The notes below the pieces were generated by a model. That model made no database searches. It was not told the DNA's origin and saw only the letters and a list, made by a program, of their open reading frames with translations. This document shows positions 1-27,146 of a stretch of 64,000 nt of DNA, one piece after another. How positions within the stretch are numbered: position 1 is the stretch's first letter; each line of letters opens with the position of its first letter. Where the stretch lies: NCBI GenBank assembly GCA_977862235.1, contig OZ374560.1, positions 496,001-560,000 of the forward strand, read 5' to 3'. Origin of the DNA: Dudresnaya verticillata. Taxonomy: Eukaryota. Made by a program: the position numbers and the translations under genes.

Positions 1-16
1 CCCACAGTGGGAAAGG

Positions 17-3528: not shown

Positions 3529-5273
3529 AATATCCGAAAAGGATACAAGTTAGATAGATAATGCCTTGAGCGGGATTGCCTCGCATGGACATCTCTTCGT
3601 CGATGAGCCACACCGGATTGGCGTCTTATTCCGATAAGAAGGAATCCGTACCACAGCCGGGGTGGGGCGGTGGGACGGAAAGACGTGGTCCTCCTCCCAA
3701 TGGTAGCCGATGAAACCAGGGGTCTTCTCCCAGCTGCTGTTCGCGTTGGCGTCGAATAATCTCTGCACGCGCTCCAATGGGTACTGGGTTCCCTCGACAA
3801 GCGCGGCAACTCCCACTTGGTGTATGGTCGAGATGGACTTACAGGGTAGCTCGAAGATACGACCACAGTCGCACCCTCCGGATCGATGCTATCCCTCGGT
3901 AACGCTCTCCAGTCAGCGGACATCTTCGTGTTAGCATGCACACCGCGATTGGTGACTTGCAACCACGAGAAGAGGACGAACATCGCTCACTCTGAGCGGA
4001 GGATTAACCCGAAAGCGGCCATCTGTGGGTGATCGAACGACTTTTCTCCATCTGGGTGTAACGCCTTCCAATTACGGTGTTGATGGAACCGGTAGGAAAA
4101 ATGGGCCACCACTGTTGGAGTCAGAACCGAAAGCCAGCGAGTGATCTCGTACTCGGCCCTTCACCCCAGTGCGATGAGGTAGAGGCTACGGTGCGACGAT
4201 GGCGACACCTGGAATAATTCATGCGTATTCCAAGTATGGAGCTGCTCCCTTCCCAACTGGCGTCCATTTCTCCCCTCAAACGGAGGAGGAGCTCCTTCCC
4301 CGCATCATCAGACCATCGCTACGGATTGCCGAGCCAGTGCAGACCCTGGTCTCATGGCCTAGAGCAGCACAGAAAGTCACCACCAACCGGACGATGCTGT
4401 AGCTGATGGGTTGAAGCCAGCAAACGGCACACCTTTTCAGCATAGCCCTCTTCTTCCTGACACCGGATCCAGACGACGTCACACCCCGATGGAGCCCGCG
4501 TCCGACAAACGGAGTGAATCCAGCGGGAATTCCACTTCTCGGCACGCCGATTCGGAAACCACTTGTGGTTGATCAGTCCACCCGACTCTGTCACGGCGTT
4601 ATAACGGCGACCCTCGCGGGTATCGCCATATTTCATGACGAACACCGACACGGGCATGGGGAGCTGGACATCTCGCGCTCCTCTTCTGTCCGTTGGCGTG
4701 GGCAGGCGCTGTGGTCATACTCCCGACCCAGCTATGTGGCCTCGTCAGTGTACTCAGTCGGACTAGCACGCCCGCGATACCCAGTCGGAGTATACGCGTG
4801 TGGACCAGAAGGAGTTGCGGTACCACCCATGTGGAGTGCAGGCGTCAGATGCATGCCCCCCGCAAGCCCATACGGGTGACTCGGCTCGAAGGCCTCTTGA
4901 CGGTCAGGCGGAGTTGCCCACTACTGTCGCAGTGCAACCGGCCTACTGCCCCACTGCCGCGGTTTGCCGCTGTCGCGGTACTCCATCTCGGTGATACTCC
5001 TTGAGGGGGCCAGGGCGATGCGTGCCAGGCCCCCTGCGGCGATCAGACACCGACGTGCCCATTGTCTGTCCAACACCCCTGACTCGGCGGCGTGGAACTC
5101 TTGGACTGGAAGTGCGTGACGGCATCACTCCCACTCCCGCTGGAGTCTCCGGTACTGTGTTTGTAGGCGCGCGTCTTATTCCTCAGCTTGCGCCTTCGCT
5201 GCCGGTGCCTCCACCGTTGCCTGCGTACGTCGCGTGGGCTAAAAACGGGCCCGCGCGCGGTCAGTGCTGCCAC
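3529..5273 (-). pseudogene. Antisense accessory ORF of element A (disrupted, truncated)
   Basis: Fragments FPNRRAEKWNSRWIHSVC, WLSVLTPTVVAHF, LILRSE*AMFVLFSWLQV and TPGFIGYHWEED align with B aORF VPNRRAFVWQSRWVHSYC, WLSVPTPSVVASF, IFRSEWAMLVLFSWLQV and TPSFLGYSWDED. The start is uncertain. Confidence 0.75.
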
Positions 5274-5435
5274 TCGTACATCGCCAGCGGCACACCGGAA
5301 TGGAGAAGCACGTTAGTAGACAGGCGTCAATATGAACCCGCTGGTGTTTCAGAAGACGTGTCGCGGTACACCTGGTTGGAGTGCCTACCAAATGCCCGGG
5401 GCGAACGAGGACATGTCGCCATTTAAGGGGGGGCC

Positions 5436-7021: not shown

Positions 7022-7710
7022 TGTAGTGAAAACCCACGAACTCCGTAACGGACAGCTGGCCTGACTTTCCTACACGGGACGAGGGCGACACTACCTCCAC
7101 GGGGTGGTAGAGCAGTTCGCATCGAGACGAGAGAACAGCGAGCGGCTAACCGAATCGGATATTGGGAAGCAGCAGACAAGGGGGTGGTACAAGTGCCGGG
7201 ACGGACCCCGTAACGGTGGTGGTGGTAGACCGCAACGGGCTCGGCGCGGGGAAAACCGTAAAGGAAAGAGTTACACTGGGATTGAGGCTCAAGGGTTGCT
7301 TGCCCGTTTACCCTAGGATCCGCTGCGGTGCCGCCCTGATATACAAGTCAGGTTGGCACCGAGCGGTCCGGTCCGTGGGGGCCAGACCCTAGTGGTCTGG
7401 TCCTATGGTGGAATCGGCCGTTTTGGTCCCAATCTCTGACATGGATATGCGCAGCAATCTCATTGGCTGGCGCACTACTCTACACAAATTACAGATATTC
7501 ACAAAAATAAAGAATAAATACCACAAATACTCCGCTATGATTGGTGCGCTCCACTTACAGTACAGTGATGCGTACCAGTGCACACTAATGCGCACACAAC
7601 CGAAACAGTTACACGTTGCCAGATCATCAGCGTGGCGTATCGCTACATCATCCGTTACGGTTGGCTCAACGTCGGTGCGCCGCATGCGTGCCACGGCTCA
7701 CTTCACCACA
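7022..7710 (-). repeat. 3' LTR of element B (689 bp, TG...CA)
   Basis: Minus strand starts TGTGGTGAAGTGAGCCG right after the PPT and ends TCACTACA; same termini pattern as LTRs A and C. Confidence 0.85.
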
Positions 7711-7845
7711 GACCCCCCTCGTTAAATGGTGCCACGTCCTCGGGCGCCCACCGTCACGGATTGCCATCCCTTCCACATCCACACATTCATCCGATATTGT
7801 TAACGCTCTCAACTTTCCCTTATACTTCGTGCGCCTTCTTCCAAT

Positions 7846-10692
7846 ATGGCAGGGGAGAAAAGCAAGCGCTCCCCCTCGCCCTTTCAACCGAAACGGCGTA
7901 CTCGCGCGAGCTCGGCGACGAGAGCGCCGGGCGCACATACCGTCACGGATGCTTCGACGCAAGCACAGGTCTCTTCCTCGGCGGCTGCGACAAGACCCAC
8001 GACGCGTGGCCGTGTGGACGTCCCCGCATCGGAAGCCGTGCAGGTACCATCAGCGGGCCGCAGCTGGTCGGTCTACGATCCGAATCGGTTTGCTGCTCGC
8101 GCAGCCACAAGGACCGCACGGACAGGGAATGCAGCGACCCACCGTGACGGAGAAGAGTCGCCCAAGGATGATGATGAGGAGGTCCGACGTGGTGGCGAGG
8201 TGCTCAAATTGGCGGACCTTCCATCGATTCCGTTAAGGTCGCCTTCAACACCGACATCAACGCCGGTGCGGAGTATGCGAGCGAGCCCGCATCCTGCTCT
8301 CAACAATCCGAGACGGTCGCCTGTTCCAGCGCGAAGTACTACGCCGGCCTCAAGCCCTTGAATGTCGAGGGCGCGTACCCGTAACGGTGAGGGCCCTGCC
8401 ATAAGTGGATACTGGCCGGGGCACCATTTCGATCACCATGCTGGGCGCCCGGCGAGATCCGATGCGGAACGGGCGAAGGTCACACCGCCGATGACAGTGT
8501 CGTACTTCATCGAGGATTACCCACCCGTTTTGGAAGCGCAACGATACCAAGCCGTTTCGGAGCAGCCATTCAAGGCAAACCAGCTAATTGGTTTCGTTCC
8601 CAACCGGCGGGCGTTTGTGTGGCAAAGCCGATGGGTGCATAGCTACTGCCAAGAGCGCACCACTACCGTTTCGGATTTGTTGTGGTACCGTTGCCACGGA
8701 GAAGTTGGGTATACCGCGAAGGTGAGCCGCTTGTTCTCCAAGGCGTTCCTTCTACGGGGTAAACCGATCGGGGTGCAGTTCATCTGCTTCGACCCACCGT
8801 ATGACCAATCGGTGTATTGGATCCGCTATGCCGACGGGTGGAAAGACGACACGGCAACGGCACACCGATTGTGGACGCGCTACCGAGACGGAATGCATGT
8901 GGGCGCACCCATCTTGCACACGTGGAATACCAAGGAGTTCTTCCACCCTCCGTATCGGATGCGACGTGAGCTCTACCTCACAGCTCCGTCGTGGTGGGAT
9001 AGCTATGCGGTAACCCGTTGGCTATCCGTGCCCACGCCTTCTGTGGTGGCGTCCTTCTCCGCGGACCTGTTCACTGAGCGGGAGTAGAATCGCTAACATC
9101 CGAACGGAGAGCGTCCCCCGAACCGAGATCAGCTTGACGTGCTTTGGCGTATCTTCCGATCCGAGTGGGCAATGCTGGTGCTATTTTCGTGGCTCCAGGT
9201 TGCCTACTATGGCGTACGGTACAATACCAAGTTATCCGACTGGAGGTGCTTCCCGCGTGACGAAGATGACCTACCCGGAGGAGATTCTGGCCGTTTTTCA
9301 ACTACCCGTGACGGTAATCGCCCTAATTCGCCAAGTCGGCGCATCCGATTTGGTGACGGGGTCGGCGTATCCCCTCCATCGGGTTGAGCTTCCTTTATCC
9401 GTACACGAAGAGAAGGATTGGCAACGCACTCCGAGCTTCTTGGGATATAGTTGGGATGAGGACCGTATCCCATCGGTGCCCCCGCTTAGGCCCGGAGTGG
9501 GCGAGACATATTTCCTTCGTCGGGAAGATCCTCGTCCGGAATGTTTGGCCTTAGAGGTGCAAGCCCATCGGGGTTATGCGCCTCACCAAGCACCAAGGGA
9601 TACGTACCGTGACAGTTTGGAAGGGGCTGAAGATTGGAGGAGTTGTCAGGAGACAACTGGGCTTTCGCGTGCAATCGAGCCGCTCGATTCCGGCACGATG
9701 AGGCAGCAAGAAGCTCGCCCTTCTTGGAAGAGCAGGAGGAGGTCATACCCGTCGCACCTATGGCAGTGGATGTTGAGAAAGTAGCCGCTCCAGTCCTTCC
9801 GGTGGTCGCTACACCCACGTTGCGCGATGTAAGCCGTGAGACTACTACTCCCGTATCGGATAAGGCCCCGACGCCCATAGACGTGGTTGCGCCTACTTTC
9901 GCGGTGCCCAAGCCCGCGGCACCATCCAAGAAGCTGGCTTCGAAGGAGCAGACCGCTTCGGAAGCAGAGCCGGGTACTGTGCCGGCAGCACTGGCTCCTG
10001 CGAAGCAACTGCATGCAGCCGCCGAATCGCTCCCCACAAGTGCTCCGCTGCCGGCACTCACTCCCGCACCAGTGGTGAGTGAGGCACCGATCACCGTACC
10101 GGAAGTGGCGCCAAAACGCCCAAGTACCGAGGCAATTGGCGACAAGCCTTTGGCTCCCTCGTTGAATCATGAACCGTTACGGAAAGGCGATATCGCCTCT
10201 CCAGAGAAGGATACGAATCCACCTCCGCGGAAGAAAATACCTTCACCCGAGTCGGGACCATCCGTAATGGTGGTTTCCTCAACGAAGCATTCATTCGAAG
10301 CCGGGTTTAGGGATAAGCCGTCGATATCCCCGAAGGTAGAGCTTCAAGAAGATGAGGATCCCACCGTCACGGTTGCAGCCCACTTAGGCGCTACGGAAAG
10401 CGGGTTACAGGTGCTACGGGGTATTTGCCGTACACAGCGCTTCCCGTTGACAGGATCCGTTCAGGAGGCGTTAAACTTAGCGGAGGGACTGATGGAGAAG
10501 GTGATTCATCTCCGCGCAGTGGTCCGTCGTCAGCGTTGGCGTATGGATAATGCGCTGCGCGCCTCGGGCGACAATACGCAGCGTGCATTCCAATCGGATC
10601 CGGCTGGAGAACCCGAATTACGAACTCGGCAGGGGGGCAACGAAGAAGATATAGCTGCCCCCGCTCCGAAGCGGCGTCACCGTGACTCTTAA
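7846..10692 (+). pseudogene. Antisense accessory ORF of element B (about 950 codons, disrupted by stops and frameshifts)
   Basis: ORFs 7846-8361, 8362-9087, 9139-9387 and 9634-10692 are in one frame; 9134-9784 supplies a frameshifted middle part. Trp/Tyr-rich core plus Pro/Ala-rich tail; homologous to the aORFs of A and C. Confidence 0.8.
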
Positions 10693-10792
10693 AGTTACAG
10701 TTCGACGATCTCCTTAACGGTTTCACGTGTACCCCAACCTTACCTTGCGATAAATATTGTACGTACCCATCCACTAGCACTCCAGCTGTCCG

Positions 10793-11131
10793 TTACGGTG
10801 AGCGACGTCTTGGATTGCCACGTCGCCGTAGTTCACCCTTAGCGGAGGTCCTTTTCTTTTGTTTCCAATACCGGTAGATGAAAGTTTTCGGCAACTCCTC
10901 AGCGGGCTCAAAAGTGCCCTGATCCGGAGGGTAACCATACCAGCGGACTTTATATGTCATCCGAGTGGGTTCGTCGCGGTGACCGACAATCTTGTCGATC
11001 AAGTATTCCGTATCGGCTTGCAATGGTTCCGTCGCGGAGGTAGTAATACCTTCTGACGGAGGTAATGCACTAATACCTCCTGGATGTGGTCCTACTTCTC
11101 CGTAGACGGTTGAGGGTGTGACAGGCGGCAC
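10793..11131 (-). pseudogene. Element B integrase C-terminal chromodomain
   Basis: EYLIDKIVGHR..YKVRWYGYPPDQGTFEPAEEL matches the chromodomain consensus. Confidence 0.9.
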
Positions 11132-11180
11132 CGCTACAGGTGTCGGTTGGACAGAGACTCCGATCGGAACTTTCGTAACA

Positions 11181-12553
11181 CTATCGATACTGACAGGGAT
11201 TAATACCCCTTCCTTGCGGATGGAACCACATGTTCTGCTGAGGATTCCACTTCATAAGGCCCCGTGCCTCTCGGAGGAGTTTCTTCATTTCCTGAACCAC
11301 CTTGCCCACGTTATCCGGTTTGCCTTCCAATCGGTCCCGTTGACGGCGTTCTGCAGGCCGCAAGTTATGGGGCGGCCGGTCGACATATAATTGACCTCCG
11401 CTTTGGATTATGGGCCCACAGCGCACCTTACGGTCAAAAAGTGCCTTGTCCTTTTTCTGAGCCACTGTCTTCTTCGTGCGCGCTGTCTGGGGCGCATACC
11501 GTAAACGGCGCATAGTGCTCCGCTTCTGTAGCACCGGGCTCATACGCCCTTCCGTAACGGTTTCTTGATGCTCGGCAGGAGCCCCTCGTACAACAATGTC
11601 CGATGGGTGGCATGTCAGCACCAAATCAAATGGTGTTGTTTCCGTAATACTGTTTACCTGCATATTGTAGGCATACGTCAACGGTTGCAGGTACAAATCC
11701 CAATCGGAATGATGATCCTCAACGTAATCGCGCAAACGCTGGGCGATTGTCTTATTGAATCGCTCAGCTTTCCCATTTGTCTGCGGATGGTAGGCAGCGA
11801 TGAGTAGATGCCTGACTCTGAGTAAGGAACGCACCGCATCAAAGCATTTAGCAGTCCACTGCGGTCCGTTATCGGTTAGGACAAACTGGGGTGCGCCATA
11901 CGCATACATCCAAAAGTCCAGAAAGGCGTTAGCCACCACAACGGCTGTTGTTGTCCGTAACGGAATACAGCGCGTCAGCTTAGAGAACCGATCGGTTATT
12001 ACCAAAACGTAGATATAACCCCTTTTTGTCTTCGGAAGTGGCCCGAGGATATCGATAGCGACAAACTCCAAAGGTCCGCTAGCGGGGAAAGTTTCATAAA
12101 CCTTTGATTCCGAAAGCGGGTTCCCTTCGTCTTGACGCACGAGCGACATGTCCGAACGGATTCAAATAAATCGCTGGCCATTTGAGGCCAGTAATAATCC
12201 TGTCGAAGTGTATAATACATCTTAATCCCTCCTGAGTGTCCCGACATCAGGGTGTAGTGGGATAAATACAATACCCGTCCACGGAGTTCGCTTGGCACCA
12301 CCTTCTGCAGAGCACCATCGAATTGGGACTTGCGCACCAATAATCCGTTACGGTCATAGTCAAATTGTGATCCAGGGGATCCTACCATATCGGCTTTGAG
12401 ACGACAGAAAGGGTTTCGGGCTTGTGCTTTGAGGCACTCCTCCCTGATTATTGTCTCATCCTTAACATCGGATTTTTGGATTACAGTAAACCGTGACGGT
12501 ATCGCGTCGGGCTTGTCAGGGGAGGCGGATGCACTTACACAGGAGGGCTCCAC
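11181..12553 (-). pseudogene. Element B integrase (HHCC zinc finger + DDE core), frameshifted
   Basis: SHYTLMSGHSG..CRSC; VAIDILGPLP, TDRFSK, LTDNGPQ, YHPQTNGKAERFN. Confidence 0.93.
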
Positions 12554-12659
12554 GGCGAATATTACGTCACTTTGCCGTAGCGGTTTCTTGTGATGTGGCC
12601 CAATCTGTTAAATGAACTCCATACTCATATAATCCGTCGACGGTATTTTCGGCGACAAA

Positions 12660-13140
12660 GCAAGGTATCTCTTCATCCAAAGGTAGGTCGTCACCGCCAT
12701 CCGTTCGGAGTCGCGACATCCCATCGGCGAGTTGATGCTTAATACCTGGACGGTATTACGCATCAAATTCAAATTCCGATAGGCGGAGCCTCCTGCTGGC
12801 CAGGCAGCCAGATGACTCTGCGAGGTTCAGGATCCATCGAAGAGCATCGTGATCCGTTCGGGGAATAAACTTGTCACCGTAAAGGTATGGTCGGAGTGTC
12901 AACATGCTCCAGACCACGGGTAAGAATTCCTTTTCGGGTTTAGTATAATTTTTCTCCGCATCGGTGAGGATCCGGCTCCAGTATCCAATAGGGAGGCGAT
13001 CGCCATTCGGTTGTTCCTACAAAAGGACACAGCCGACTTGATGGTCACCTGCGTCAGTATCCAACGTATATTTATATCCGTGACGCGGTAGAGACAATAT
13101 AGGTAGAAAGATAAGGCGTCTCTTCAGTTCCGTATGGGCT
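12660..13140 (-). pseudogene. Element B RNase H with in-frame stops
   Basis: Manual translation: LDTDAGDHQVGCVLL*..PIGYWSRILTDAEKNY..TDHDALRW..LADGMSRL. Confidence 0.85.
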
Positions 13141-13326
13141 TGTTAGAAACATTCGAGACCCAGATCCGAAACAGTTTGCTAGGTACAAATGTCCATAATA
13201 CCGTTAGCAATTAACGTAAGGTGCTTAAAAGCCGGCTTGGGATGATTTTGTAAAAACCATAACCCACCCGTGGGGTATTAACCGTTACGGAGGTTTGAGG
13301 CATAGGGGGAATAAGGGCAGATCTTG

Positions 13327-13875
13327 CTAAATGAATTTTCTGAGAAACCGTAGCGGTGGATAAAGATGAGGGCTGTAGAGTTGCGGCGGTACCCGTATTC
13401 GGATTTTTGGCTTGACCAACAAGGGATACCGGGGGTTAATGGTGAAAAACGACTTTCCGTAACGGGGAAGGATGGCCTTCACATAGCGGTCGATGAAGAT
13501 AGTCCCCAAAATACGCGGAGCAGCTAAGTTCGCGACCACGAGGAAGTGGAAGCGAGCACGGAGCTCTCCAATACGGAGGAAAATTTTGATCTGACCAAGG
13601 GGGCGGATAGCGCGATTAGATGCATCCCGTAGCGGAGGACTGGTGGCGGGGCGAATGAGGGGTAGCCATTGACGGGGAATTCGCCTGGCACTAATGAGAG
13701 TTGGCCCCGCGCTAGAGTCCAATACGGAGAGTATAGGAAGCATCACGCTATCTGTCCGTCCCACGGTAATTTGAATTTTATAATTTTGTTGTTGTATAAC
13801 ACTTATAGGATCATTGGTCTGAAAAGCCAATGGAAGTTCCGTAACGGTATTTCGCCGATCCCCGGGCGAGTCCAC
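13327..13875 (-). pseudogene. Element B aspartic protease (degenerate)
   Basis: LSVLDSSAGPTLI ... ILGTIFID, aligning with element C LSVLDTGAGPHLI ... ILGCTFID. Confidence 0.85.
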
Positions 13876-13919
13876 ACTCGCGAGAGGTGGAACGCTGTGA
13901 GGCGGGGATGGCGGCGCCC

Positions 13920-16328
13920 TTACGCGTCCCCCCTTGCGTTTTCCGAAATCAAGGGTGCACCAGTCGGATCCACCTTCATGTACTCGCGCAATTCCGCGTA
14001 TTTCACCCCGTCATGGTCCTCAACCGATAATATCGGGGCATTCCGTTGCGGAGGAGCCGTTTGCGGCTTGCCCCGATTCGCTTGCGGATTCGATCTGGTT
14101 CCCACGAGAAACCTGCGGCCTACGGGGTAGTACCTCTGGAAGTTGCGCTCACGCTCTTCCATGAGCTCGACCCGATCGGTGTCATCTATCCACGGGCAAA
14201 CGACATGTTCTGCAGAAAGACAGATGCGGCAATTGCTATTTCCGAAAAGGCGTCGGACCCGAGGATCCGACTCATCCCATAGCGGAGGCGCTGGTTGCTG
14301 CAGTCCTCGCCCATCGTGGGCATTATTTCCGTAACGGTGACTAGGCTGCTGTTGGGGGCCAGGAGCCCGGCGAGATGCAACATAGGGGGGACCTTGCGCT
14401 CGTGGCATCCTGGGCGGCGTAGGGTGAACGCTTTGCGGGGGTGAAGAGTACGGGGTTGAAAAGGTAACCCCCGTACTTGTTCCCGTAGCGGCACAGTGGC
14501 CTCTCTCGACTGCTAGCACTTGGTCATCTGGAGTGGAAATATTTCATTGCGGCTCGTAGTGTACATCCGATACGGAATCCAGCGATAATACCTTAGACGG
14601 GCGCGCTTTAGTGCGCCCATCAAAGACGTGAGCCGGAACGGTTTGGAGTCGAGGTGCCCGATGGGACTGACCCAGATCAGTCGCCTAGCGAGTGATGGCC
14701 TGTTAATCCAGCTGGGAATGCGTTGCAAGACAATTTCGCATCTGTTGACGCGTCCCAGGTAGGAGCCCCTCGACGAACAGTGACTTCAATGCCCGATCGG
14801 AAAATACAGTACCGCAGCGGAGAGCCTAAGCCCAGAGTTGGTTAGAGAACTGCTCTTCCGTCATGGCGGATGTTTGCCTGAAATTTCTGACATCCGTATA
14901 GGCTTCAGCGATCACTTCATCCGTAGCGTAAGTCCTCAGTAGGAAATTCACCACCTCGGAGTAAGAGCGGAGCATCTCAGCCTGCTCCACATCAACCGCC
15001 ATGGTACCTCCAGCAAGCCTAGCCTGTAGAAGGGCTTCGGCCTGTCCTTTTAGGAAAAACTGGAAGCACCAGACGGCAACCCCCTCGGCGATGCCATTGA
15101 TATTACAACCGTCACGGAACATGGCGAGAAATATCAAGACGGTAATAGGGTCCGTCCCATCGAATGTATGGGAGGACACCTGGACGTCGAGTTTCTTCCG
15201 TATACGGCTCATGTTCTGTGAGAACTTAGAGCCGTACGTCTTACTCCTCTTATCCAATCGGTAGGTGCGGTAGTACAGCGCCTTGACAAACTTCTCATGT
15301 AGCGGCCGGATTACCTTCACCTTTCCGGATTTGGCACCGTGTTTTCTGGCTCGGTGCCTATTCTCTCTATCCGTTAGGGAAGAACTATCTGAGCCTGATT
15401 CAGTAGAGGAAGAGGAGTCATGCCTTTTTCCGCGTTTCCGCGATCTTCTTTTTCTCCTTTTCCGCGAGCGATGTTGGCTATCTTCTGAGCTTGTCTCATT
15501 ACATCCCATACCGGATTGGTGGCGTCGTCGCTGGGTGTGGTCGCCCATGTGCGACCGAGGGGGCGGGTCAGAGCGGGAGTGTCGGGCATCTCGATTATGC
15601 CCACCTCGACCGGTCCTCCGACTCGGATGGGGTGAGCTGTACGCATCGCAGAGATGGTCGCTGCCTCCACCTGATCGAACCGGAACGGTATAGCGCTCTT
15701 GCTGATAGCGCCCTGGCGTAGGAACATCTACGTGTCCAGGAGAATAACGTAACGGTGGCTGAGTGCGTGTTGGTCCCGTAGGGTATTGATGTTGCGAATC
15801 CGTTACTGGAGCCGGTGGCAGTGGCCCAGAGAGTACTGTACCCGGCTCTAATCCTATAACGGCGGGTTGTTGCGGCTGCTGTGTTCTTCTCTCGACCGGT
15901 AAGTCATTCCGTAACGGTGGTTGCTCAGTAGAAGCTTCCGTAGCGGAAGGCCTTGCCAGGCCAGGAGCAGTCTGGCTCTCGAGCTCGGCGGCCACCTTTT
16001 CCTGTAGGATGAGAGCTTGCACCAACCGGGGAAGGTGCTGCTCCAAGTAGGAGTTAGGCAAAAACGGAACGGTTTCCGAGAGGGATATCTCCACCTCTTT
16101 CACCATTCCAGGTTGTCATTCCAATCGGAGATGCTCTAACACCCTGACAAGGACCTCCGACAGGACCCAGTGGTGTGGTGCAAGGGGGCACATTGGGAGT
16201 TCCACGTGGACAGAATCGCCCGTAACCCCGAAAACAACGGTTCTGAGAAGTTTGCCATCATAGGGAGACGTTCCCCGATAAGAGCAACCACAGGACCGAA
16301 TCCTACGTTTCAAGGTTGTCGATAACAA
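13920..16328 (-). pseudogene. Element B gag with several in-frame stops
   Basis: ORFs 16116-16328, 14826-16106 and 13920-14519 are in one frame; YRTYRL..FDGTDPITVLIFL aligns with C gag YRRYRL..FDGSDPVSIIGFL; degenerate knuckle CRICLSAEHVVC. Confidence 0.85.
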
Positions 16329-16341
16329 TCTCGTTTAGAAG

Positions 16342-19032
16342 ATGCCGACATATAACGGTGAAACCACCCGCCCAGGCTTAATGAGCCGGGGTGGTAGCCA
16401 TACCGGCAGCTTATCCTCCGTGAGGACCACGGGAGCAAGAACCCGTGCTGTAATAGCCGCTTTGGCTCGAGGTCCTACAGTAGGAGAAGCGGAACGCCCG
16501 CCCCGAATGGTGGGCGCACCAGGAGACGAAGACCCGTCTGCCCATGGAAAAGGACAGACCCCTGAAGGAGAAAATACGGCCCGGACTGCAGCCGCAAGCA
16601 CCGCCAAAATCGGTGCAAATGAGGGTCCGGACCCTACTATGCTGCCGCCGCCGCCGATGCTTCAAGCTGGTTACAGCCAGCATGACACAGGCGGACTGGC
16701 CTTAGAAGAAGAAACGACTTCATCGCTTCCTCCCGATATCGGAATGCCGATGAGAACGAAGGCAAACTCAAGCGACCAACGGTGCTTTACGGAGCGTGAA
16801 ATTGGTCACTTGGTCGAGACCGGCATCGAGAATGCTCTCGGCACTAGCGTATTGGCGCTGCTTGAAAGCCAGGCAGATGAAACCCTCACACGGGTGAAAC
16901 GCTATTTCGACGACGCCATCACGCGTCGAGACGACCAGCTACTGGCTAAGTGCCAAGAAATGGTCAGTTCTCGTTGCCAACAACGCCCCCTGAGGGGTTT
17001 AGATAAGGAAAGGGTCGAGACCCTACAAGCCCAAGTGGACTCAATGGGGGACCAGTTGGAATCGGTTCATCTTGAATTAGATGAAGCCACGAAGGCTGCC
17101 GACCTTTCCAGGACAGAAGCCGCAATGGCTATTGCGGACGTTCAATTTAACGTGGACAACGCACGGTGCGTTGAACAGGACAGAGCCATCGAGGTCCTAA
17201 GGAAAGAACTCGATGAGGAGAAGCGTCGTGTCGCTTTTCTAGAATTGCAGATGCGGCGCGTAACCCGCGAGAGGGATAATATCCCTGAAGTCATGAGACG
17301 GCGCTCACCAGTGCCTCGCGGTACGCGCGACAGGCGTAGGAGGCTACCCCATAGGGGGTCGGACAGTGGGTCCCAAGGTGAAGGAGATGGAGGCCGTTGC
17401 CAACTGGGTTGCAAGTGCACCAGACCAATTGGGTCTTCTGCACACCGCGACCAAGTTGATTCTCATCGTGACAGATATTCAAGTCATCGTCACGAGGAGA
17501 ATCCTCGGTCAGGGTCTCACCCTAATCCGGGTCCCTCGGATGAAGAAGGACCGGGTTCCCGTTCGCATTCTAGACCGTCATGGTATTCCTGGAGGGGTGC
17601 CCGACGTTCCGGTGTGAAGGAGCTGACTCCTGGGAATCCTGCTTTCATACAGGTGCTGTCCTATAGAAGGTATAGGTTATTGAACCTGGATGATTACCGC
17701 GGGCCCGAGGTGACCGAGGCGACCACGAAGAAAATCAAACGCGTCAAGTCCGCTATGCGGAGTCGCCGTTTTGACGGGAGTGACCCGGTGTCAATTATTG
17801 GCTTCTTAGTCACGCTGAAGAGGCAGCTCGATCAAGCCCATATCAACGGAGGTGCCGCTATACTCGTCATCCCCGAGTTCCTCGAGAAGGATGCGAAGGA
17901 TATGTTTGAAGCGAATTTTGACGCTGCGAGTGACGACAATGGTGGTTTCACCGAATGGCCCGAAGCCGTGAATTACCTTCTCTGGACCTATGCCAAGGAT
18001 GTCTACATTGAGAGGATTGCCTCTGAGATGGACACGATGGCGCAGGAGCCAGATGAGGACGAGGTTACTTTCTCGAGAAGGTTGCAGAACAAAGCGCGTC
18101 GAGTCGCTGGGGTGTACACCGAACAAGACTTGATAACCAGGTTTATTCGGGGGTTGTTACCAGCGGTGAAACCGCTTTTAAGTACGTCGTCCTTGGACCC
18201 AATGACTGCCAGACTGGCGGATTATGTCGAGCTTGCGACTGCACAGGGAGATTCCCATCGGGCGCTAGTAGGTGGCGGACGAACGCCAAAAGCGAATAGG
18301 ACGATACCAAGGAAGACCTTGAAGAAGGTTCGTACCCACAAGTCAGGACGGGCGCTCCTAATTCGCCAGGCGAAGGATACATCCGCCTCCGATTCGGATA
18401 CTTCAAAGAGCAGCGGCTCTGATGCGGAAAGCGAAGACGCAGTCGTGGCCACCATCGCTAACGAAGCGCCACCATGAACAGCGACCCAATCGGATTCGTG
18501 GTCGACACAGTATTACTACGACCAACCGTATCACGATGAAGTTGACGCGGTACTGCAGAACTACAGTAATAGGCTCCCCGCCTGGGCACAGCCAACCAGG
18601 ACTCAACGCCCTGGGTGGGTGACGGTTGAAGACCAACCTAATGATATCTGCTTCGAATGCTACGGCATTGGCCATAAAAAGCCCAACTGTCCACATTTGG
18701 CTCGAACCGATGAGCAGTCTTTTGAGACTTTAAAAAGAAGACAGTTTCATAAACTATCACACGAGCAAAAAGCGTGGCTGGCGACCGTTGGCCGACTGAC
18801 GGAGTTCGCTAACGAGCGAGTGCCCGCCGGGCCGCCCATAGGGCAACGGATGGATCCCCGTCACAATTTGGATGCAAGTCAAGGGGGAAATCGACAGGTT
18901 CAATTTAAACCTGCACTGAACCACCCCATTGACGCTCCGAGGTAAACGCCAAGGTCACCACGCCAAGGGCCTCGTCCCTTTCCACCACCTCCACCGCTAC
19001 CGCGGTCGCCCACAATGAAGGCAAAAAACTAG
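16342..19032 (+). pseudogene. Element C gag (in-frame stops at 18475 and 18943)
   Basis: 711-aa ORF continues in frame into the CCHC knuckle CFECYGIGHKKPNC and ends GCA AAA AAC TAG. Confidence 0.88.
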
Positions 19033-22000
19033 CGAGGGGGGAACAGGTTTCGGTACACCACATATCCCAGGTGACATCGGAACCCCCCGATCGGTACGTT
19101 GAATCCAGCTCCTCGAGCTACAGCTTCGAAAACTTCTCATCAACGAATCGACCGGTTGTTAGTGAATCTGTGACTTCTCTTCCCAAGAAGATCTTAGCGC
19201 GTCCTGTGGGCTTACCCCCCGGACGGAAGTATCACGAGTATTGTAAGGATCCCGTTTGCTCCTTGTCGCTCTACAATTATAAAGTAGCTGCGTCCATCGG
19301 GACTTCTGTTGACGATCTTACTCGTGTGCTCTCCGTACTGGATACAGGGGCAGGCCCTCATCTCATCCGCGCGGATGTTCTATCACCGAAAGACAAGAAA
19401 CGGATTTCTACAACGCGGTCAATTGTGAACTTGACCTCCGCGTCAAGTTACCAACTAACTACACTGGGAACAGTCTCCCTGATAATCAGGCTCGGGTCCT
19501 ACACGGTTCGGCAACCTTTCGTTATCGTAAGGGCATTGGCAGTAGATGCCATCTTGGGTTGCACGTTTATCGATACCCATGTGGAAGGGTTACGCGTCCG
19601 CCAACAGAACATGGTTCTTCGCGACGGGTCCATTCACCCAATTCTACGCCGCCGATGCGGTATACCTCGTGAGGGCAGGTCCGACGAACCAATGGACGTT
19701 CCCCCGTTACCTACCTCGCGACTCATTCGCGTCGCACAAACTACTAATTTACTGCCCGGCAGTGAGTCATGGGTTCCTGCTACCCGTTCTGCCAAAGGAA
19801 CACATTTCCTGGAATCCCTACCCCGCTTATACGAGCGCCGACAAGTCGTTTTGACGAATGGAATTTTCAACATTCAAGAGAACCGACTCTTTCACGTCAA
19901 GGTCGCGAACTTTTCTTCGCGTCCTCAACGGTTTTCCAAGAATCAAAGCCTTGGCAAGGCTGTACCGGCGCCCACGCAGACGCCGGTCTACACTGTCTCC
20001 ATCGAGGATAATGTTCCTGCCAGTGACACGCTTCCCTCGTCCCAAACATTTTCCGATTTAGGGGGGCGGGGCTTGCTGCTGGGCTTTCGGCTGCTCTGAA
20101 GACGGATATAGACTCTAAGCCTGGAATCAAAATCGCGACTTCAGCTTCAACCGCTATTACGGTCGATGACCTCGCGCTGGAACACCTGTCCACTTCGGAC
20201 CGGCGCCGCGTACGCAACATGCTTAAACCGTTCGCCGGTATGTGGGACGGAAAACGCGGCACCATCAAGGTGACCGAACACCGTATTGAGCTTCAAGAAG
20301 GTTCGAAACCAGTGTTTACTCAACCATATCGGTCGGGCCCTAAAGCCCGTCAAGCAAAACAGGATGAGGTCGACAAAATGCTCAAATAAGGCGTCATAGA
20401 GCCTGCACGCTCTGCGTTTGCGAGCTCCGTCGTTTTGGTTAAGAAGCCCGACGGGTCACTCCGCTTTTGCGTTGAATATCGCAAGCTGAACGCGATTACA
20501 GTGAAGGATACGTATCCTCTGCCGCGCATGGACGAGTATTTGGACTTCCTGCGCGAGGCCCAATGTTTCAGAACCTTGGATTGCAATTCAGGCTACTGGC
20601 AGATTCCGGTTTCACCGGAGGATAAGCATAAGACTGATTTTGCATGCCACGAGGGCTGCTTACAATTCTGCAGGATGCCCTTTGGGCTATGCAACGCGCC
20701 GGCGACCTTTGAGCGAACGGTTGACATCCTCTTATCAGGATTTCGATGGAAATCGTGCCTCGTATACCTCGACGATATTATCGTATTCTCTGCAACTGTC
20801 GACGGGCATATCACGCATGTAAGAGAGATTCTCTCAGTATTACAAGAAGCGGGGGTCTCCTTGAAACTTAAGAAGTGCAACTTCTTCACAAAGAGTGTCG
20901 ACTACTTAGGGCACGTCATCCGTCCAGGTTTATTAGAAGTGGAGACTAAGAATACGCAAGCCATCGAAGTCTTCAAGGAGCCGACCACCCAGACCCAGTT
21001 ACGGTCTTTCATCGGTCTTTGCAACGTTTACAGGCGATTTGTACCTAACTTCGCTCGCGTGGCAGCTCCGCTCAATGCCCTCCTGCAGAAGGAAGTGGGC
21101 TTTGAACGCCCGCAGTTCAATGAACGTCAGCGCGAGGCGTTCGGGTTGCTGAAGAAAGCGCTAATAGCGCCTCCTATTCTTAGGTTGCCACAAGAGGGTA
21201 AGGCCCTATCGGTGGATACCGACGCGTGCGACTACCAAATTGGTTGCGCGCTAATGCAAGCCTAAGAAGACGGGACTCGACACCCGATAGGCTTCTGGAG
21301 CCGAGGGCTGACGAAGGCAGAGAAGAATTACTCTGTAGGCGAAAAGGAGTGCCTAGCAGCGGTCTGGGCGGCACAATTGCTCAGACACTATCTAGAAAGG
21401 TCCCACTTTGACCTGTATACAGACCATCAAGCGCTGAAATGGATGATGAGTATGACAGATGCTTCTGGACGGTTGGCCCGTTGGAGATTACGCCTCCTGG
21501 AATACGACTTCACGGTCCAGTATCGAAAAGACAAAAAGAATCAGATTGCTGATGCCGTATCTCGGTTGCCCACGTATGGCTTCACGCCATGGGAACCGGA
21601 CCTGGAGATCCCGTGTCTAATCCTCGCGACTGATCCGAGGGACGAACCCTGCAAAAGGTCGCGACTGGAGCCCAATACGCGACCGTTGGAAGCGTGGGAA
21701 ATCGAACCCGTCGATGAGTCCGATTCGGATGACGAAATGTTCATCGCCCAAGTGGCCGAGAAGGAATCTGGACAAAAGGGACTATCCCTCATCACCACAG
21801 AAGAGTTGCTCCGTGAGCAGAAAACAGATGAATTCTGTATCTGGGTCCGAAGGAACCTCGAGGCCGGGAAGCCTGGTTGTTATCTCGAGGACGAACGAGG
21901 GCTCCTAGTCCGGAAGTCGTATATCGACAAGGCGATACAGGTTCTCATACCTCGTTCTCTTAAGGAAAGGGCGTTACACCTAGCGCACTACCCCGAGATG

Positions 22001-23451
22001 GCGGGACACCCAGGTGGAACCCGGATGTATCATAACCTGCGAAGACAGGTATATTGGCCAGAGATGGCATTGGATGTGAACGCCACCGTGTGTAATTGTG
22101 TCAAATGCGCGCAAGAACGGGTGAAGTTGCGGAAACATGCTTCACATATGAAACTCTTCCCGGCTACCATGCCTCTGGAGTTCGTAGGAATCGATATCCT
22201 GGGCCTGTTACCCCGCTCCGGGAAAGGAAACGAGTTCCTGTTGGTTATGACGGATCGCTTCTCAAAGCTGACGCGAGCGATACCGATGAAAACGGTAACC
22301 GCCTATACCGTGGCGAAGGCGTTTTGCGACCATTGGGTCTTTATCTATGGACCGCCCCGTTACGTCCTTTCAGACAATGGGTCTCAATTTGCCTCTAAGT
22401 TCTTTCTCGCCGTGTGCGATATCCTACGGATTCGGAATATGTTCACGTCGACATACCATTCCCAAACTAATGGGCAAACCGAGAGGTTCAACCGCACCAT
22501 CCTAGCGGGCCTTCGCCACTTCATAGCGGAAGACCAGAGGGACTGGGACGAGTTTGTAAGAGTCACCTCAGCGCTCACGTACGCTTACAATACGACAGTG
22601 CATCGCGCTACAGGGTTAGCCCCTTTTGACTTAGTTTTGTCAAATCCACCGACTTCCCTACTATTGGAACAAGCGGAAACGGTAGACATTGACGGGATAC
22701 CCGCTACGAACCTCAAGAAGCGCCTAACCGCTCGGCTGGAAATGCTCATGGATACAGATCTGCCGCGGATGCAACTAGCGCAAAAGCGCTATGAATCCAA
22801 CTTTAATAACCGCATTCGACCGGCTAACCAAAGGGTACGTCCTGGGTCATGGGTATTCCTCGAACGGGAAACCAAAGTGAAGGACGCTTCAGGTGTGGCG
22901 AGGGAAGGGAAACTGTTCCCGAAAGCCCTTGGGCCATATAAGGTTCTCGAGAGAGGAACCCATGTGGTGGTTCTCGACATCAAGGGCGACAGAGAAACAA
23001 TCTCTTTGGACCGAGTCACTTTGGCTCCATCGCCACACGAAGCGCCGCTGGCACTAGACATGAGTCCCACGGTAGTGGAAATGCCACCGGAGACAGGTGC
23101 AACACCTTCAAGTAGCCCAACTGGGCCAAATGACGGGCCCATCACAAACGCCACTGGGCCCCCGATGAATACCGCATCAGGCAGTAATGAACCGGCGCAC
23201 CCCGAAGACCGCCTGCACCGACAGTGGCGGAAGGGACGTCAAGCCGCAAATTCTCGCGCTTCAAGAAGGCGCCACCACGCGAACACGTGTACGAAAGGAT
23301 CGTTTCCTACGACCCCGACACATACCTCTATCGTGTGCGGTGGTTCCATAGCCCGGCCTCAAAGGACACATGGGAGCCAAATGGGCATCTCCCTCACAAT
23401 TTAGTTGCAAGGTATCACCGCCAAAAAGGGATACCTTTCTCTGATAATTAG
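19029..23451 (+). pseudogene. Element C pol (protease, RT, RNase H, integrase, chromodomain) with stops and frameshifts
   Basis: LDTGAG; MPFGLCNAPATF, VYLDDII; DTDACDYQIG, TDHQAL; GHPGG..CVKC, IDILG, SDNGSQF, ERFN; chromodomain YRVRWFHSPASKDTWEP (23224-23451). Confidence 0.95.
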
Positions 23452-23726
23452 CGAGGCGAACACGAGCGTTGAGTAAGGCACCGGGCCTATGAGTGGTCTC
23501 AAGAGAGCGCACCCAACCAAAACAGAAGTTAGGCTGTATGGAGTCGGATCTCCCGAATGTTAGACTCACCTCATATGAGTTGAGGTAGAACTTGGTTCTG
23601 GATTCCGAAGCCGACGCCCTCGCGCAAATACGAACGCAGCCTATGAGCTAAGGACGGCATTCACCGATTACCGAACACAGAAGCTGTGGTTAACCTCTGA
23701 AAAGATGAGACAATATAGATGGCTAC

Positions 23727-23885
23727 AGAAGAGTCAAGAATCTGGATAGATGAGGAAATGGATAGATGAAAGAAGAGTCAAGACTCTGGATAGATGTATA
23801 ACATGGATAGATGTTAGAAGGATTGGATCCTGGATAGGTGCATGGAAATGGATAGATGTGAACAAGAGGTGAACTCTGTAAGATA
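23727..23885 (+). repeat. Degenerate tandem array, unit about 44-45 bp, each unit with two TGGATAGATG
   Basis: TGGATAG(A/G)TG at 23743, 23759, 23787, 23804, 23831 and 23849; unit starts at 23727, 23771, 23816 and about 23861. Confidence 0.9.
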
Positions 23886-24827
23886 ATTTCGCTAAGGCGA
23901 GCGTAAGCTGGGGATTTAGGAGTCGATGCCTCGTCGGAAGAGCAACTAACGCTAGCGTCAGGCCAATACCTTGATGGGTAGAGTGGCCAGAACCTGGCTA
24001 CCTCAAGGGATCACTCCTGAAAGGCACAAGATATGGAGGCCTCGCTAGGGCTCTATACGGGTGATTTTTCAGTCTCGCTGACTAACTTATAATTTATTAT
24101 GACCATAACGCATAAGCGTTACGACGCTTCCTGGCGGCTGAACTGCCCAGAAGCAACACTACCGCTACAAACACGTTGGGATTGAACCCAGTAAGGGCGT
24201 AAGGCAAAAAGGCGCCTAACCCCAGACTCATGAGTCTTGATACCACCACCCCCACCTTTGGGTTGGGACAACTACGGGGAGACGCGTGAGAACCCATTTC
24301 ATCTGGGAAAATCAAGCGCATGGACGCTGAGAACTCGAGAAGCACGTTAAACCGTGACGGCGTCCAAGGAGGCTGCGTAAACCTAAGGGGCTCATGGCGC
24401 TAGCACCCAAATGGTACTCGTAACGAGAAACAAAAAGCCCCCGGAAAGGCTACAGCAAGGTGGCAGAGGGGTGTGACCAATTAACAGCCATAACGGCTTT
24501 CGCGCCGAAATACGCTACAGTGCGTCGCAATGTACTGTAGAACCACTGTGGACATTGCTGGCACGTTCTCAGGCAGCGATAGACGCTAGGGAGGCGTATT
24601 GGTCAGCCAATAATAGACTGTCCCACGGTACCCGAACAAGAAGGGGCACCACTGTCTCACTAGGAAGAACAGTGGCACCGGATGTGAAGGCTCGAAGCCT
24701 ACCAAAGCAGGGTGTTACGCATACAAGACGAAGTTTATTGCTAAGCGGTTAAGTCGCTGGAGTGGGCTTCTAGCTCCTATCAGGCTCGATGCCTCGAGGC
24801 ATGCCCCAAGACAAAGGCTCGACTCGG

Positions 24828-27146
24828 CTAATCCGATAGGACGTCAATGACCTCGTCATCGCCAAGGGGCGGTTTAGGTGCAGAAGGCGCCCGCGTCGTC
24901 ACGATGCGGCGCACCTCGCGGATGATCCGCCGACCCTGGCCACGAAGCGGTCCACGACCCCGGCGAGTACCCTCCATTGTCGTTCCTTGAGCCTCGTTGG
25001 CTGTCGTCGGGTCCACATCCATCGGCGCAACATCGCCCTCCACAGGAGCCAACTCCTCCTCTTCCTTGAGCACCAACTCAGTCTTCACGAGCACTTCGTT
25101 GGTAGGCTGCAAAGCCTCATCGGCTTGACTGGGAGCCAGCGGCGTAGATGCCCTCTCCTCCACTTGGGGAGAATCACCAGTCAAAGACTTAGCAGGCGTC
25201 TCGAGTGAAGCAGGTGCTGTGACAGATGCGGCCGAAGGGGGCGGCCCTGAGGGGACCCCAACAGGCACCTCGGCAGTGGGGCGGTTAGCCGATGCGGAAC
25301 CCGACTGTGGGTTATTCCCAGCGGGCGCGCCGCTAACGGTAGGAATCTGGCGTGGAACCACGGAGCGGAGTGGGACTCCAACTCGAGAAACCGATGGCAG
25401 GGAAGGAGGCGCCGTGACTCGCGGAGCGACGTTGGGCGCAATAGCACCAGCCGTGGCAAGGGGCTCCTCACGCGGAACCTTTGACACATCAGCCGCGGTG
25501 GATTCCCTCGCGTCGATAATCGGGAGGGGCGCTGAAGAGCCTTGGGCTGAAGAACCCGGCTTACCGTAACCGATGCCGCGGCGAACCTTAGAGCCAGGCT
25601 CTTTCTTGATTTCCACTCCAGGCTCACCTTCAGCCTTGATTCCGCCCAGCGGGGGCAACTTATTCAGGTGAGTCAAAAGGCGGTCAACCGGACCTGGAGT
25701 TCCTATGCAATGAGCCTCATACTCCGCTAGCGCGTCCTCAACCCAGTCAGCTAGACTGTTAAGGTTGAGGGAGTAGATGCCCCAATGGGCAGCAAGACGA
25801 ATAGCCAACCCACGGCGGCCAAATAGATCACGGATCTCGGCATCGGCCCGATGATGGTGTGTTAACACAGGCGCGTACGGACCTTGCGCTTCCCCGTCGA
25901 CAGTATTATCGAAAGGGGGCACCTCATCAGGGTGCTTAGGCCCTTCATCGCGCCAACGCACATTCACCCAACCCTTGGTGTAACCAGTCCGACGCTCGCC
26001 CTCATCCAGCTGGATGGGTTCACCCTCGGTGGGTAACGGTGCCATCAAATAGTCCGGAAGGACTGGGTGCCACTTGACGGCGTCGAAGTCAACCCAATCG
26101 CCGCGGTCGTACACCGGCGTCAGGTGGCCGGTGTTCTCAGGAAAATGCCTATTGCGTTTCGAGACGCCACTCCAGCGAATACGCTCGACAAATACCAAGA
26201 GTTGGTCCAAGTCTGAGGCGTCAGCCGAGTTGGCGGTGAAGGCAGCAGAGCCAATAGAACGGAGGGCCCCACGAAGTTGGACGCTGATGAAGTATAGAAA
26301 GCCCCGACGGGCTTCGTAGACGAATACTTGCGTCACTAACACAATCCACTCATGGCGGAAGATGGACCATAAGACGCTATCGTCTGCGTTGATATCCATC
26401 ATCTCCAATCCGAGATACGCAATGATGGTTGGCGTGCCGACGGGCATGGAGTAAGACACCTCCATCTCGGCATGGTCCCCTGCGACTTGAGGGTACTTAA
26501 CCCTATAGAACTCCGGACGGATAGAGGTCACCTCTTGACAGTGGGCCGGGACATAATTTCCCGTGCGATGTCGGTTGCGGCGCTCGAAGCGTATCAGGTC
26601 GGGCGGCAAGGCCGTTTGTGGGTTGTCCAGAGCGAACTTGAAATTGGACGCCTCGTCCCAACAGACCACACGAGCAGTGCTATAAGGGTAATTGTCCCTA
26701 CCGCCGCGGATCAGCGGGCGCTCGTGGGCCACCATGCCCAAGTCGAACTCACCAACGTTATGGACGTGTTGGATTTGCTCCAGCTCATAATTGAGCTTGT
26801 TACACAAGGTGGCTGTGTAGCGCACCTCGTGACGGAAGCGCGGGTGCGCTAAGTCCCACTGCCACGGACCCGTGAGGGCGGGCAGGCGACGGGTCATGCC
26901 GGTCAACAGCGCCAAACGCGCTCGAGCACGGGAATTCCAAGTGCGGCGTTGTGCCTGCCGAGCTCCATGCCGACGGATGTCGGTGCGATCAGCGCCAGCA
27001 CGCGCTTTGAGATGCGCGAGGTCGGTGCGCACTCGCCAGTCGCAGCTCTCCTTGATAGTGAAAGGCACTCCTGCCTCATCCACTTCAATACCGAGCACAC
27101 CGGTGCTTGAGCCAGCGGCCCCATAGGCCATGTGGCTATGGCTCAT
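24828..27146 (-). CDS. Intact 772-aa antisense accessory protein of element C, unknown function
   Basis: Uninterrupted ATG-stop ORF between pol and the PPT, opposite strand; shares motifs with the A and B aORFs. Confidence 0.85.
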   Translation of the reverse strand: MSHSHMAYGAAGSSTGVLGIEVDEAGVPFTIKESCDWRVRTDLAHLKARAGADRTDIRRHGARQAQRRTWNSRARARLALLTGMTRRLPALTGPWQWDLAHPRFRHEVRYTATLCNKLNYELEQIQHVHNVGEFDLGMVAHERPLIRGGRDNYPYSTARVVCWDEASNFKFALDNPQTALPPDLIRFERRNRHRTGNYVPAHCQEVTSIRPEFYRVKYPQVAGDHAEMEVSYSMPVGTPTIIAYLGLEMMDINADDSVLWSIFRHEWIVLVTQVFVYEARRGFLYFISVQLRGALRSIGSAAFTANSADASDLDQLLVFVERIRWSGVSKRNRHFPENTGHLTPVYDRGDWVDFDAVKWHPVLPDYLMAPLPTEGEPIQLDEGERRTGYTKGWVNVRWRDEGPKHPDEVPPFDNTVDGEAQGPYAPVLTHHHRADAEIRDLFGRRGLAIRLAAHWGIYSLNLNSLADWVEDALAEYEAHCIGTPGPVDRLLTHLNKLPPLGGIKAEGEPGVEIKKEPGSKVRRGIGYGKPGSSAQGSSAPLPIIDARESTAADVSKVPREEPLATAGAIAPNVAPRVTAPPSLPSVSRVGVPLRSVVPRQIPTVSGAPAGNNPQSGSASANRPTAEVPVGVPSGPPPSAASVTAPASLETPAKSLTGDSPQVEERASTPLAPSQADEALQPTNEVLVKTELVLKEEEELAPVEGDVAPMDVDPTTANEAQGTTMEGTRRGRGPLRGQGRRIIREVRRIVTTRAPSAPKPPLGDDEVIDVLSD

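Follow-up and report, generated by a model that had tools for sequence, protein, structure and literature searches.

A conserved antisense-encoded protein family and family-specific palindrome lattices in Gypsy retrotransposons of Dudresnaya verticillata

Introduction

Certain long terminal repeat (LTR) retrotransposons carry an extra open reading frame (ORF) that is positioned between pol and the 3′ LTR and is read antisense to the other genes. Examples of this aORF-3R class include gene23 of maize Grande and the ORFs of rice RIRE2, Silene Retand (TRP28, PF04195), and PvRetro13, and the function of antisense accessory ORFs in LTR retrotransposons is an open question (PMC7264820; PMC11963269; literature here and below is cited from partial texts). 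A survey of plant elements, whose available passages do not cover red algae, describes the extra ORFs as highly heterogeneous (PMC6317226). In the current study, we analyzed a 64,000-nucleotide stretch of Dudresnaya verticillata DNA (assembly GCA_977862235.1, contig OZ374560.1, positions 496,001 to 560,000 of the forward strand), hereafter called the window, in which three retroelements designated A, B, and C carry an intact or broken antisense ORF (aORF). The aORF proteins belong to one conserved family under purifying selection, the gene occupies the same antisense position behind pol at loci outside the window, and elements B, C, and an outside locus (L004) are each studded with their own short palindromic motif.

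A second type of accessory protein is exemplified by VANC, the anti-silencing proteins of Arabidopsis VANDAL elements. VANC21 binds a 9-base motif that is dense in its own family, and VANC motifs, for which binding has been established by chromatin immunoprecipitation and electrophoretic mobility shift assays, are mainly non-coding, non-palindromic, and arranged in tandem arrays (PMC5735166; see also PMC8616336 and PMC13547354). The Plavaka elements, which are red-algal EnSpm DNA transposons, carry the accessory genes PAG1-3, of which PAG3 has been proposed to bind arrays of inverted repeats in its own element, and transposons of C. merolae are silenced by H3K27me3 (bioRxiv 10.1101/2025.02.11.637652). 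Chromodomain-bearing Gypsy lineages of brown algae fall outside the chromoviruses (PMC12477816). Other comparison literature includes PMC3350952 and PMC6431247.

An antisense gene lying between the 3′ LTR and pol

The first 28.3 kb of the window consist of nested pieces of LTR retrotransposons. The features of element C are as follows.

24828..27146, minus strand: C aORF, 772 codons from ATG, no internal stop
16342..23451, plus strand: C gag-pol, 5-7 breaks; contains gag, a CCHC knuckle, a protease-like region, reverse transcriptase, RNase H, integrase, chromodomain
23191-23451, plus strand: C chromodomain, C-terminal to integrase
23727..23858, no strand: three-copy 44-bp tandem array in the spacer between pol and the aORF
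27659-27669, plus strand: C polypurine tract (PPT), 11 bases identical to the PPT of B
27670-28315, plus strand: C 3′ LTR, directly after the PPT

The C aORF sits between pol and the PPT, antisense to gag-pol, and its ATG lies about 510 nt from the PPT. The initial annotation described this frame as fully open for 772 codons, which is confirmed, and the chance of an open frame of this length is about 4e-13 given the local stop frequency. The same annotation set this open frame against the stops and frameshifts of gag and pol, a contrast that is not significant. Given 5-7 breaks across the 7.1 kb of gag-pol, a 2.3 kb aORF would remain unbroken with a probability of P 0.10-0.20, and therefore the contrast is no evidence of continued selection. 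The chromodomain of C matches Pfam Chromo (E 4e-5) at 23.9 bits, just below the cut-off of 25.1. Near the gag-pol junction, an AAAAAAC run followed by TAG (19021-19032) resembles a -1 frameshift site, although the frames leave its use unsettled.

The aORFs of elements B and A are broken, and the features of both elements are as follows.

7846..10692, plus strand: B aORF, broken; stops at 8359, 9085, and 9094, and two frame changes
10793..16115, minus strand: B gag-pol, broken; gag (16115), protease-like region, RNase H, integrase, chromodomain (10793); most of the reverse transcriptase not seen
7713-7723, minus strand: B PPT, about 120 nt from the B aORF
7710-7022, minus strand: B 3′ LTR
3578..4669, minus strand: A aORF remnant, made up of blocks with homology to B; reading frame broken, position of the start uncertain, no tail
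5425-5433, plus strand: A PPT
TG at 5436 to CA at 6072, plus strand: A LTR

Three antisense ORFs next to the PPT, in three divergent chromodomain-type Gypsy families, had been claimed initially. For B and C this description stands, because in both the aORF is antisense and lies behind a pol that ends in a chromodomain (for B, Pfam Chromo E 1.3e-9). However, the A and B frames are broken, with many stops and frameshifts in A, and A comprises only the aORF remnant, PPT, and LTR, with no gag, pol, or chromodomain adjoining. Furthermore, A and B share aORF blocks that are 39-52% identical and LTRs that are 69-75% identical (blastn). They are therefore sister families, and the window holds two deep lineages rather than three. 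The gene order gag, protease, reverse transcriptase, RNase H, and integrase with a C-terminal chromodomain is present in C and L004, and B has the same order with most of the reverse transcriptase missing.

Neither B nor C has an adjacent 5′ LTR. Their gag genes face each other head to head across some 220 nt (16115-16342) that contain no 5′ LTR, which suggests a deletion or inversion. A partial LTR between A and B (6491-6859, plus strand, ending in ACTACA) resembles the 3′ LTR of C (66.5% over 251 nt, blastn), but it is too diverged to be the 5′ LTR of C itself. A degenerate Copia-like remnant with gag-, protease-, and integrase-like pieces by translation, and no Pfam hit, abuts A (1-3200, minus strand).

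Relatives of the antisense protein and evidence for selection

A phmmer search with residues 1-484 of the C protein against 1.84 billion cluster representatives returned 125 homolog clusters at E <=0.001, which align mostly over residues 175-390 at 23-45% identity. When these 125 homologs are used in tblastn searches, 119 match C, nine match B, and one matches A. Direct pairwise comparison of C with A and B is weak (tblastn E 0.03-0.07). In contrast, a hidden Markov model (HMM) built from the 125 homologs and free of any sequence from the window recovers B at 41 bits (iE 5.7e-14), and the A and B pieces are collinear with it. Across the 64 kb, every hit of this model other than C falls inside A or B, and the best score on the reversed window is -2 bits. 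Against 150 codon shuffles per frame, four of the five frames exceed all shuffles; the fifth, a frame of A at 3.1 bits, does not. The homology between C and A/B that the initial annotation had made a condition of its claim is therefore clear by profile, and the shared motifs it quoted for A, B, and C are present and collinear.

The family, with members of 400-900 aa, has no match to a characterized gene in the collections searched. None of the 126 family sequences matches a Pfam family at E 0.01, 16 members gave one chance-level hit in NCBIfam (E 0.064) and none in PHROGs, and a sequence search of the PDB found no matches. Word-index protein searches returned nothing for C or a B piece and one match for the profile, and the ESM Atlas gave no usable match for C or for the homolog P0024. 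Scans of viral contigs revealed no relatives, and none of 64 matches to the aORF pattern in metagenome contigs was confirmed. Rfam gave no hits over positions 1-30000 of the window, and no tRNA was found. Among 30 homolog clusters that were looked up, the sole name is "hypothetical protein", and several of these reside on contigs of 9-14 kb, the size of one element. Our literature search, which had Repbase and subscription journals outside its reach, found no description of this aORF family or of a palindrome lattice. This is apparently an undescribed protein family, although the aORF class itself is already known.

Codon-position identities indicate purifying selection, with third positions much less conserved than first and second. 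For A and B these values are 0.57/0.68/0.32 over 295 codons, with pN/pS of 0.42-0.59 (used in place of dN/dS because synonymous sites are saturated, and computed on blocks picked by translated alignment, which favors that frame). The dN/dS near 1 that had been named as grounds for rejection is not seen. At two outside loci, L003 and L004, the aORF values (0.70/0.79/0.35) are nearly those of the integrase of the same elements (0.70/0.80/0.35), and the aORF is under purifying selection as strong as that on integrase.

These loci come from a scan for an integrase pattern that is blind to the aORF and that yielded 13 Gypsy loci outside the window. Ten of them have <=544 nt behind pol and are uninformative. 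All three loci with >1.5 kb behind pol (L003, L004, and L006) carry the aORF in antisense orientation, detected at 32.8 bits in L006 and at 11.5 bits in L004, where 12 homologs are also found by blastp (best E 4.5e-5). The proposal of an ancient, selected, and apparently undescribed accessory family is thus borne out by the 125 homolog clusters, whose cores have 27% median identity (93 sequences), the weak third positions, and the three antisense loci. Two features of the outside loci are also worth recording. In L006 (1887-2356), the aORF and integrase are both truncated and meet head-on, as an internal deletion would leave them. In L004 (3-902) and L003 (2090-2764), the aORF core continues into a conserved stretch of about 115 residues that contains Cys and His and is unmatched in C.

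Palindrome lattices specific to each family

Elements B and C are each marked from end to end by a short inverted motif.

7043..15946, no strand: B lattice, 54 CCG-N3-CGG sites spread through LTR, aORF, pol, and gag at a mean gap of 168 nt
16622..28272, no strand: C lattice, 53 small inverted repeats of the form AG-xyz-loop(3-5)-z'y'x'-CT, spread through gag, pol, the spacer, aORF, and LTR at a mean gap of 224 nt

The 54 sites in B compare with 5.0 expected (maximum 16 in 2645 shuffles), and the excess is present only with the N3 spacer. All 14 exact copies of CCGTWACGG in the window are inside B, versus 0.40 expected. The excess persists in coding frames under synonymous shuffling (40 versus 7.4) and on held-out blocks (51 versus 7.0; 42 versus 5.3). 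The flanks of the B motif lack covariation (14/54 versus 19.0), and thus the motif reads as a sequence site; B also lacks an excess of generic five-base-pair hairpins (1.01x). Regular spacing of the B sites is not significant (P 0.07-0.09).

The C lattice is of a different kind. Its sites are five-base-pair hairpins closed by AG and CT, and there are 53 of them versus 2.1 expected (maximum 8 in 1785 shuffles), or 40 versus 2.2 in coding frames under synonymous shuffling. The inner arms vary from site to site yet stay complementary, which is to say that they covary, and the stems end sharply at AG/CT, with the next bases pairing below chance (4/53 versus 14.3, P 0.0006). Mismatch counts are 8 versus 3.0 for G-U on the sense strand, 11 versus 3.3 for the antisense equivalent, and 38 versus 13.0 for other mismatches. 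Because G-U is not favored over other mismatches, DNA fits better than RNA as the form in which these sites matter. In predicted RNA windows, the mean pair probability of the stems is 0.53 for sense and 0.56 for antisense, and other inverted repeats reach 0.51. Lattice density in C is alike in coding and non-coding DNA (3.1-7.7 per kb). The coding-DNA sites of both B and C fall in all three reading phases, and a comparison of homologous proteins at five sites often shows different residues. An initial motif for C, AG[GC]-N7-[GC]CT (38 versus 12.9), was dropped in favor of the hairpin description.

In 4-kb bins, the B and C motifs stop at the borders of their own elements, and host blocks and the Copia-like remnant, which served as a control, have no comparable top word. 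Outside the window, L004 contains 36 copies of GG-x-N4-x'-CC versus 7.7 expected (maximum 18 in 2370 shuffles), again with a covarying inner pair. The L004 form CGG-N6-CCG is also raised in L003 (5 versus 0.9) and L006 (5 versus 0.8), neither of which was used for its derivation. The closing sequence differs family by family. The excess of generic five-base-pair hairpins in C (3.4x) and in the lineage members L012 (4.0x) and L009 (2.2x) indicates that this trait is lineage-wide; the counts are 57 versus 14.2 in L012 (1-2672) and 17 versus 7.7 in L009 (1-1845). A separate observation concerns L002 (1-1578), which has ACG-N3-CGT (8 versus 1.8 expected) and no five-base-pair hairpins (0 versus 6.4), possibly reflecting another family word of the B type.

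Predicted architecture of the protein

Structure prediction with AlphaFold2 for residues 1-484 of C is confident (pLDDT 81.7, pTM 0.77), as is the prediction for the core of a homolog, P0008, from a separate 16-sequence alignment, whose helix pattern is like that of C by eye. The predicted parts of the C protein are listed below.

residues ~22-400: folded core (prediction)
residues 427-480: small three-helix domain (prediction)
C-terminal region: disordered tail (prediction); four psi-K-x-E sites, and a SIM-like VIDV at the C terminus

The family is thus predicted to have a folded core of about 380 residues, a basic helix, and a disordered tail bearing SUMO-site and SUMO-interacting motif (SIM)-like words. 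The basic helix, at 182-195, is conserved (E-R-x-x-R-H/S-R) and carries a mean of 4.8 K/R versus 2.0 D/E in 89 sequences, and W, Y, R, E, P, G, and D make up most of the conserved residues. No membrane helix is apparent in C, for which peak hydropathy is 1.33, and only 7 of 125 homologs exceed 1.6.

Foldseek searches of the PDB and BFVD at E 0.001 gave no match, where the PDB queries were models of >400 residues and not the core alone. The best VIA-align score, Z 4.5 for C 431-484 versus the Ddi2 HDD (rmsd 3.2, 52 aligned), and a second case at Z 3.6 (rmsd 4.0, 77 aligned) are both at background level. Two models thus lack a PDB fold match, which makes the protein a candidate new fold without thereby demonstrating its newness. 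The absence of a clear match to an env-like or captured host gene, on which the initial annotation had staked its claim, extends across Pfam, NCBIfam, PHROGs, PDB, and BFVD.

The tails were examined with the common consensus definitions for SIM and SUMO-attachment (psi-K-x-E) sites. Of the 126 sequences, 69 were used for the tail tests, 62 for charge, and 93 for the tree. SIM-like words occur in 10/69 tails (shuffle mean 2.6, maximum 8) and psi-K-x-E in 9/69 (mean 3.6, maximum 9), and the two co-occur in five tails (Fisher p 0.002). LRSV-like (10/69) and M-x-V-D (12/69) words are enriched as well. The latter bears on the Pro/Ala-rich tail with VAPM(A/D)VD that had been reported for B and C. 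This motif is present in both, but it is short (12/69 tails) and lies just behind the core in B and near the end in C.

What might the antisense protein do?

Our preferred interpretation, which is quite possible but tentative and draws on analogy, is that the aORF product is a nuclear, VANC-like self-recognition factor that binds the palindromes of its own family and keeps the element active. An antisense transcript would start in or near the 3′ LTR, the encoded protein would enter the nucleus, and its core might read the palindromes or mini-hairpins at the DNA level. The tail could engage SUMO-linked chromatin factors and, in the manner of VANC, either counter silencing or license transcription. 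If core and motif diverge together, then each family would serve its own copies. The gene, its place behind pol, its selection, and the lattices of B, C, and L004 are established here and favor this reading, as do the conserved basic helix, the tail words and the lack of a membrane helix as hints of a nuclear site, the recurrence of the L004 form in L003 and L006, and the precedent of VANC21. A more specific version holds that an antisense-encoded protein with a new fold reads a lattice placed every 170-220 bases, genes included, and that its SUMO-linked tail unsilences its own copies only. We regard this fuller version as doubtful. If it were true, no retroelement before this one would have had a VANC-like system, and the system would also be a module for targeting chromatin that can be programmed.

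A number of observations weigh against this self-recognition proposal. The protein and the motifs both travel with the element, and so Gag, integrase, or a host factor may be the reader. The lattices also differ in kind, with a fixed sequence in B and covarying inner arms in C and L004, and a single fold would need to read both. In A, the lattice is not significant (4 versus 1.3 in 2.7 kb), and one host block, a GC-rich low-complexity stretch, passed the held-out motif test. On the protein side, the B version of the basic helix is divergent, and the core overall is close to neutral rather than basic (median net charge of -1, ranging from -11 to +11, in 62 sequences). Words resembling nuclear localization signals are borderline (23/69 versus 14.0, maximum 23), and the tail motifs were chosen after viewing the alignment and are present in a minority of tails. 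The informative outside loci number only three, and L003 is linked to the family via L004 alone. VANC motifs are mainly non-coding, whereas the motifs here are palindromic and lie in coding DNA as well. Finally, CpG is not depleted in the elements or the host (0.92-1.09), and therefore nothing points to DNA methylation as the target, as it is for VANC.

Perhaps the aORF is a real accessory regulator and the lattice is instead read by Gag or nucleocapsid, as packaging or reverse-transcription signals, or by the integrase complex. RNA viruses are known to use dispersed stem-loop packaging signals, and the covarying arms of C and L004, the stems predicted to form in RNA windows of C, and the lineage-wide hairpin excess would all suit such a reader. 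However, the sense strand has no G-U preference over its antisense equivalent or over other mismatches, the two strands fold alike while other inverted repeats pair as well, and in B the stem is too short and the flanks do not covary. We consider this possibility, the main rival, a doubtful one. It is less probable still, and in our judgment unlikely, that the lattice is a mutational by-product of template switching during reverse transcription or repair and that the aORF protein has a separate role, for example that of a decoy toward SUMO or chromatin proteins of the host. The strict Watson-Crick covariation without wobble, the even density of C sites in coding and non-coding DNA, and the differing residues at the five compared sites would be consistent with such an origin. 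Mutation alone fits less well with C stems that end at AG/CT, with one fixed word in B that is unaccompanied by generic hairpins, and with closing sequences that change between families.

Two further alternatives concern the gene itself. Capture of a host gene or a gene of another transposon, such as PAG1 of red-algal Plavaka, carried as a passenger or enzyme, has precedent in the PAG genes, which pass from one transposon family to another and of which PAG1 lacks any known domain (bioRxiv 10.1101/2025.02.11.637652). An active site could also be built from the invariant-like residues E, R, D, and W. Selection equal to that on integrase and the finding that 3/3 informative loci are Gypsy elements speak against capture, as does, indirectly, the lack of a functional name for any of the 30 clusters and the element-sized contigs of several. 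This origin is therefore improbable. A protein of the env or movement type, serving spread from cell to cell, would occupy the same slot between pol and the 3′ LTR, but the gene runs antisense rather than sense, membrane helices are missing from C and high hydropathy is rare among the homologs, and the tail motifs are of a nuclear type. We find this explanation very improbable.

Whatever the reader may be, these elements combine a new, foldable protein family with a cis signal particular to each family, which makes the question of function directly testable. Should the aORF protein not be the reader, the lattice, which shapes gag and pol as well as the aORF, would still be a constraint on retrotransposon sequence that lacks an explanation.

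Neighboring features of the window

The remainder of the window includes several other features.

34570-35766, plus strand: host SET-domain gene (Pfam E 5e-21)
39696-40262, plus strand, and 49073-49552, minus strand: two small bZIP genes (Pfam bZIP_2)
29915-30835 and 41817-43025, plus strand: two ORFs with the common short segment W..D..F..G....V.Y.DGD; no Pfam hit
31500-31712: 108-bp tandem repeat, two copies, 88% identical

The segment shared by the two ORFs is reminiscent of a Tudor-like domain.

Comparison with known systems

Like the aORF-3R class, the genes described here (B, C, L003, L004, and L006) lie between pol and the 3′ LTR in antisense orientation. They also show the conservation on a par with core proteins that characterizes the class, as judged from the L003/L004 aORF and integrase and from the 125 homolog clusters. 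Grande, RIRE2, Retand, and PvRetro13 belong to non-chromovirus plant lineages, whereas B, C, and L004 bear chromodomains, and none of the 126 aORF sequences has a Pfam match to TRP28 (PF04195), the plant mobile domain (PF10536), or Athila ORF1. Boty elements bear a chromodomain as well. The brtn gene of Boty (Botrytis, Sclerotinia) likewise adds an antisense gene to a Gypsy element from outside plants (PMC7264820; PMC8365987). Accordingly, the initial statement that antisense 3′ ORFs are known from Tat/Retand, RIRE2, and Grande elements is correct as to the class, which nonetheless is not confined to them (PMC7264820). The available portions of the aORF-3R literature mention no element-wide palindrome lattice (PMC7264820; PMC11963269).

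Plavaka elements resemble the present ones in having accessory genes in algal transposons, one of which (PAG1) has no known domain. They differ in being EnSpm DNA transposons whose repeats form tandem arrays beside the gene, to judge from the available part of that report (bioRxiv 10.1101/2025.02.11.637652). The aORF lacks any match to a methylase, SET, ParB, or oxygenase domain. The likeness to VANC is one of arrangement: an element-encoded accessory protein with conserved and variable regions, together with a short, dense, family-specific motif. Such a motif, dense in its own element and rare elsewhere, is found in B, C, and L004 and does not reach significance in A. In contrast, VANDAL is a Mutator-like DNA transposon whose VANC acts on DNA methylation, whereas the present system is a retroelement with undepleted CpG. 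We use VANC as a working analogy, not as a claimed homolog, for how an antisense-encoded protein might recognize the copies of its own family.

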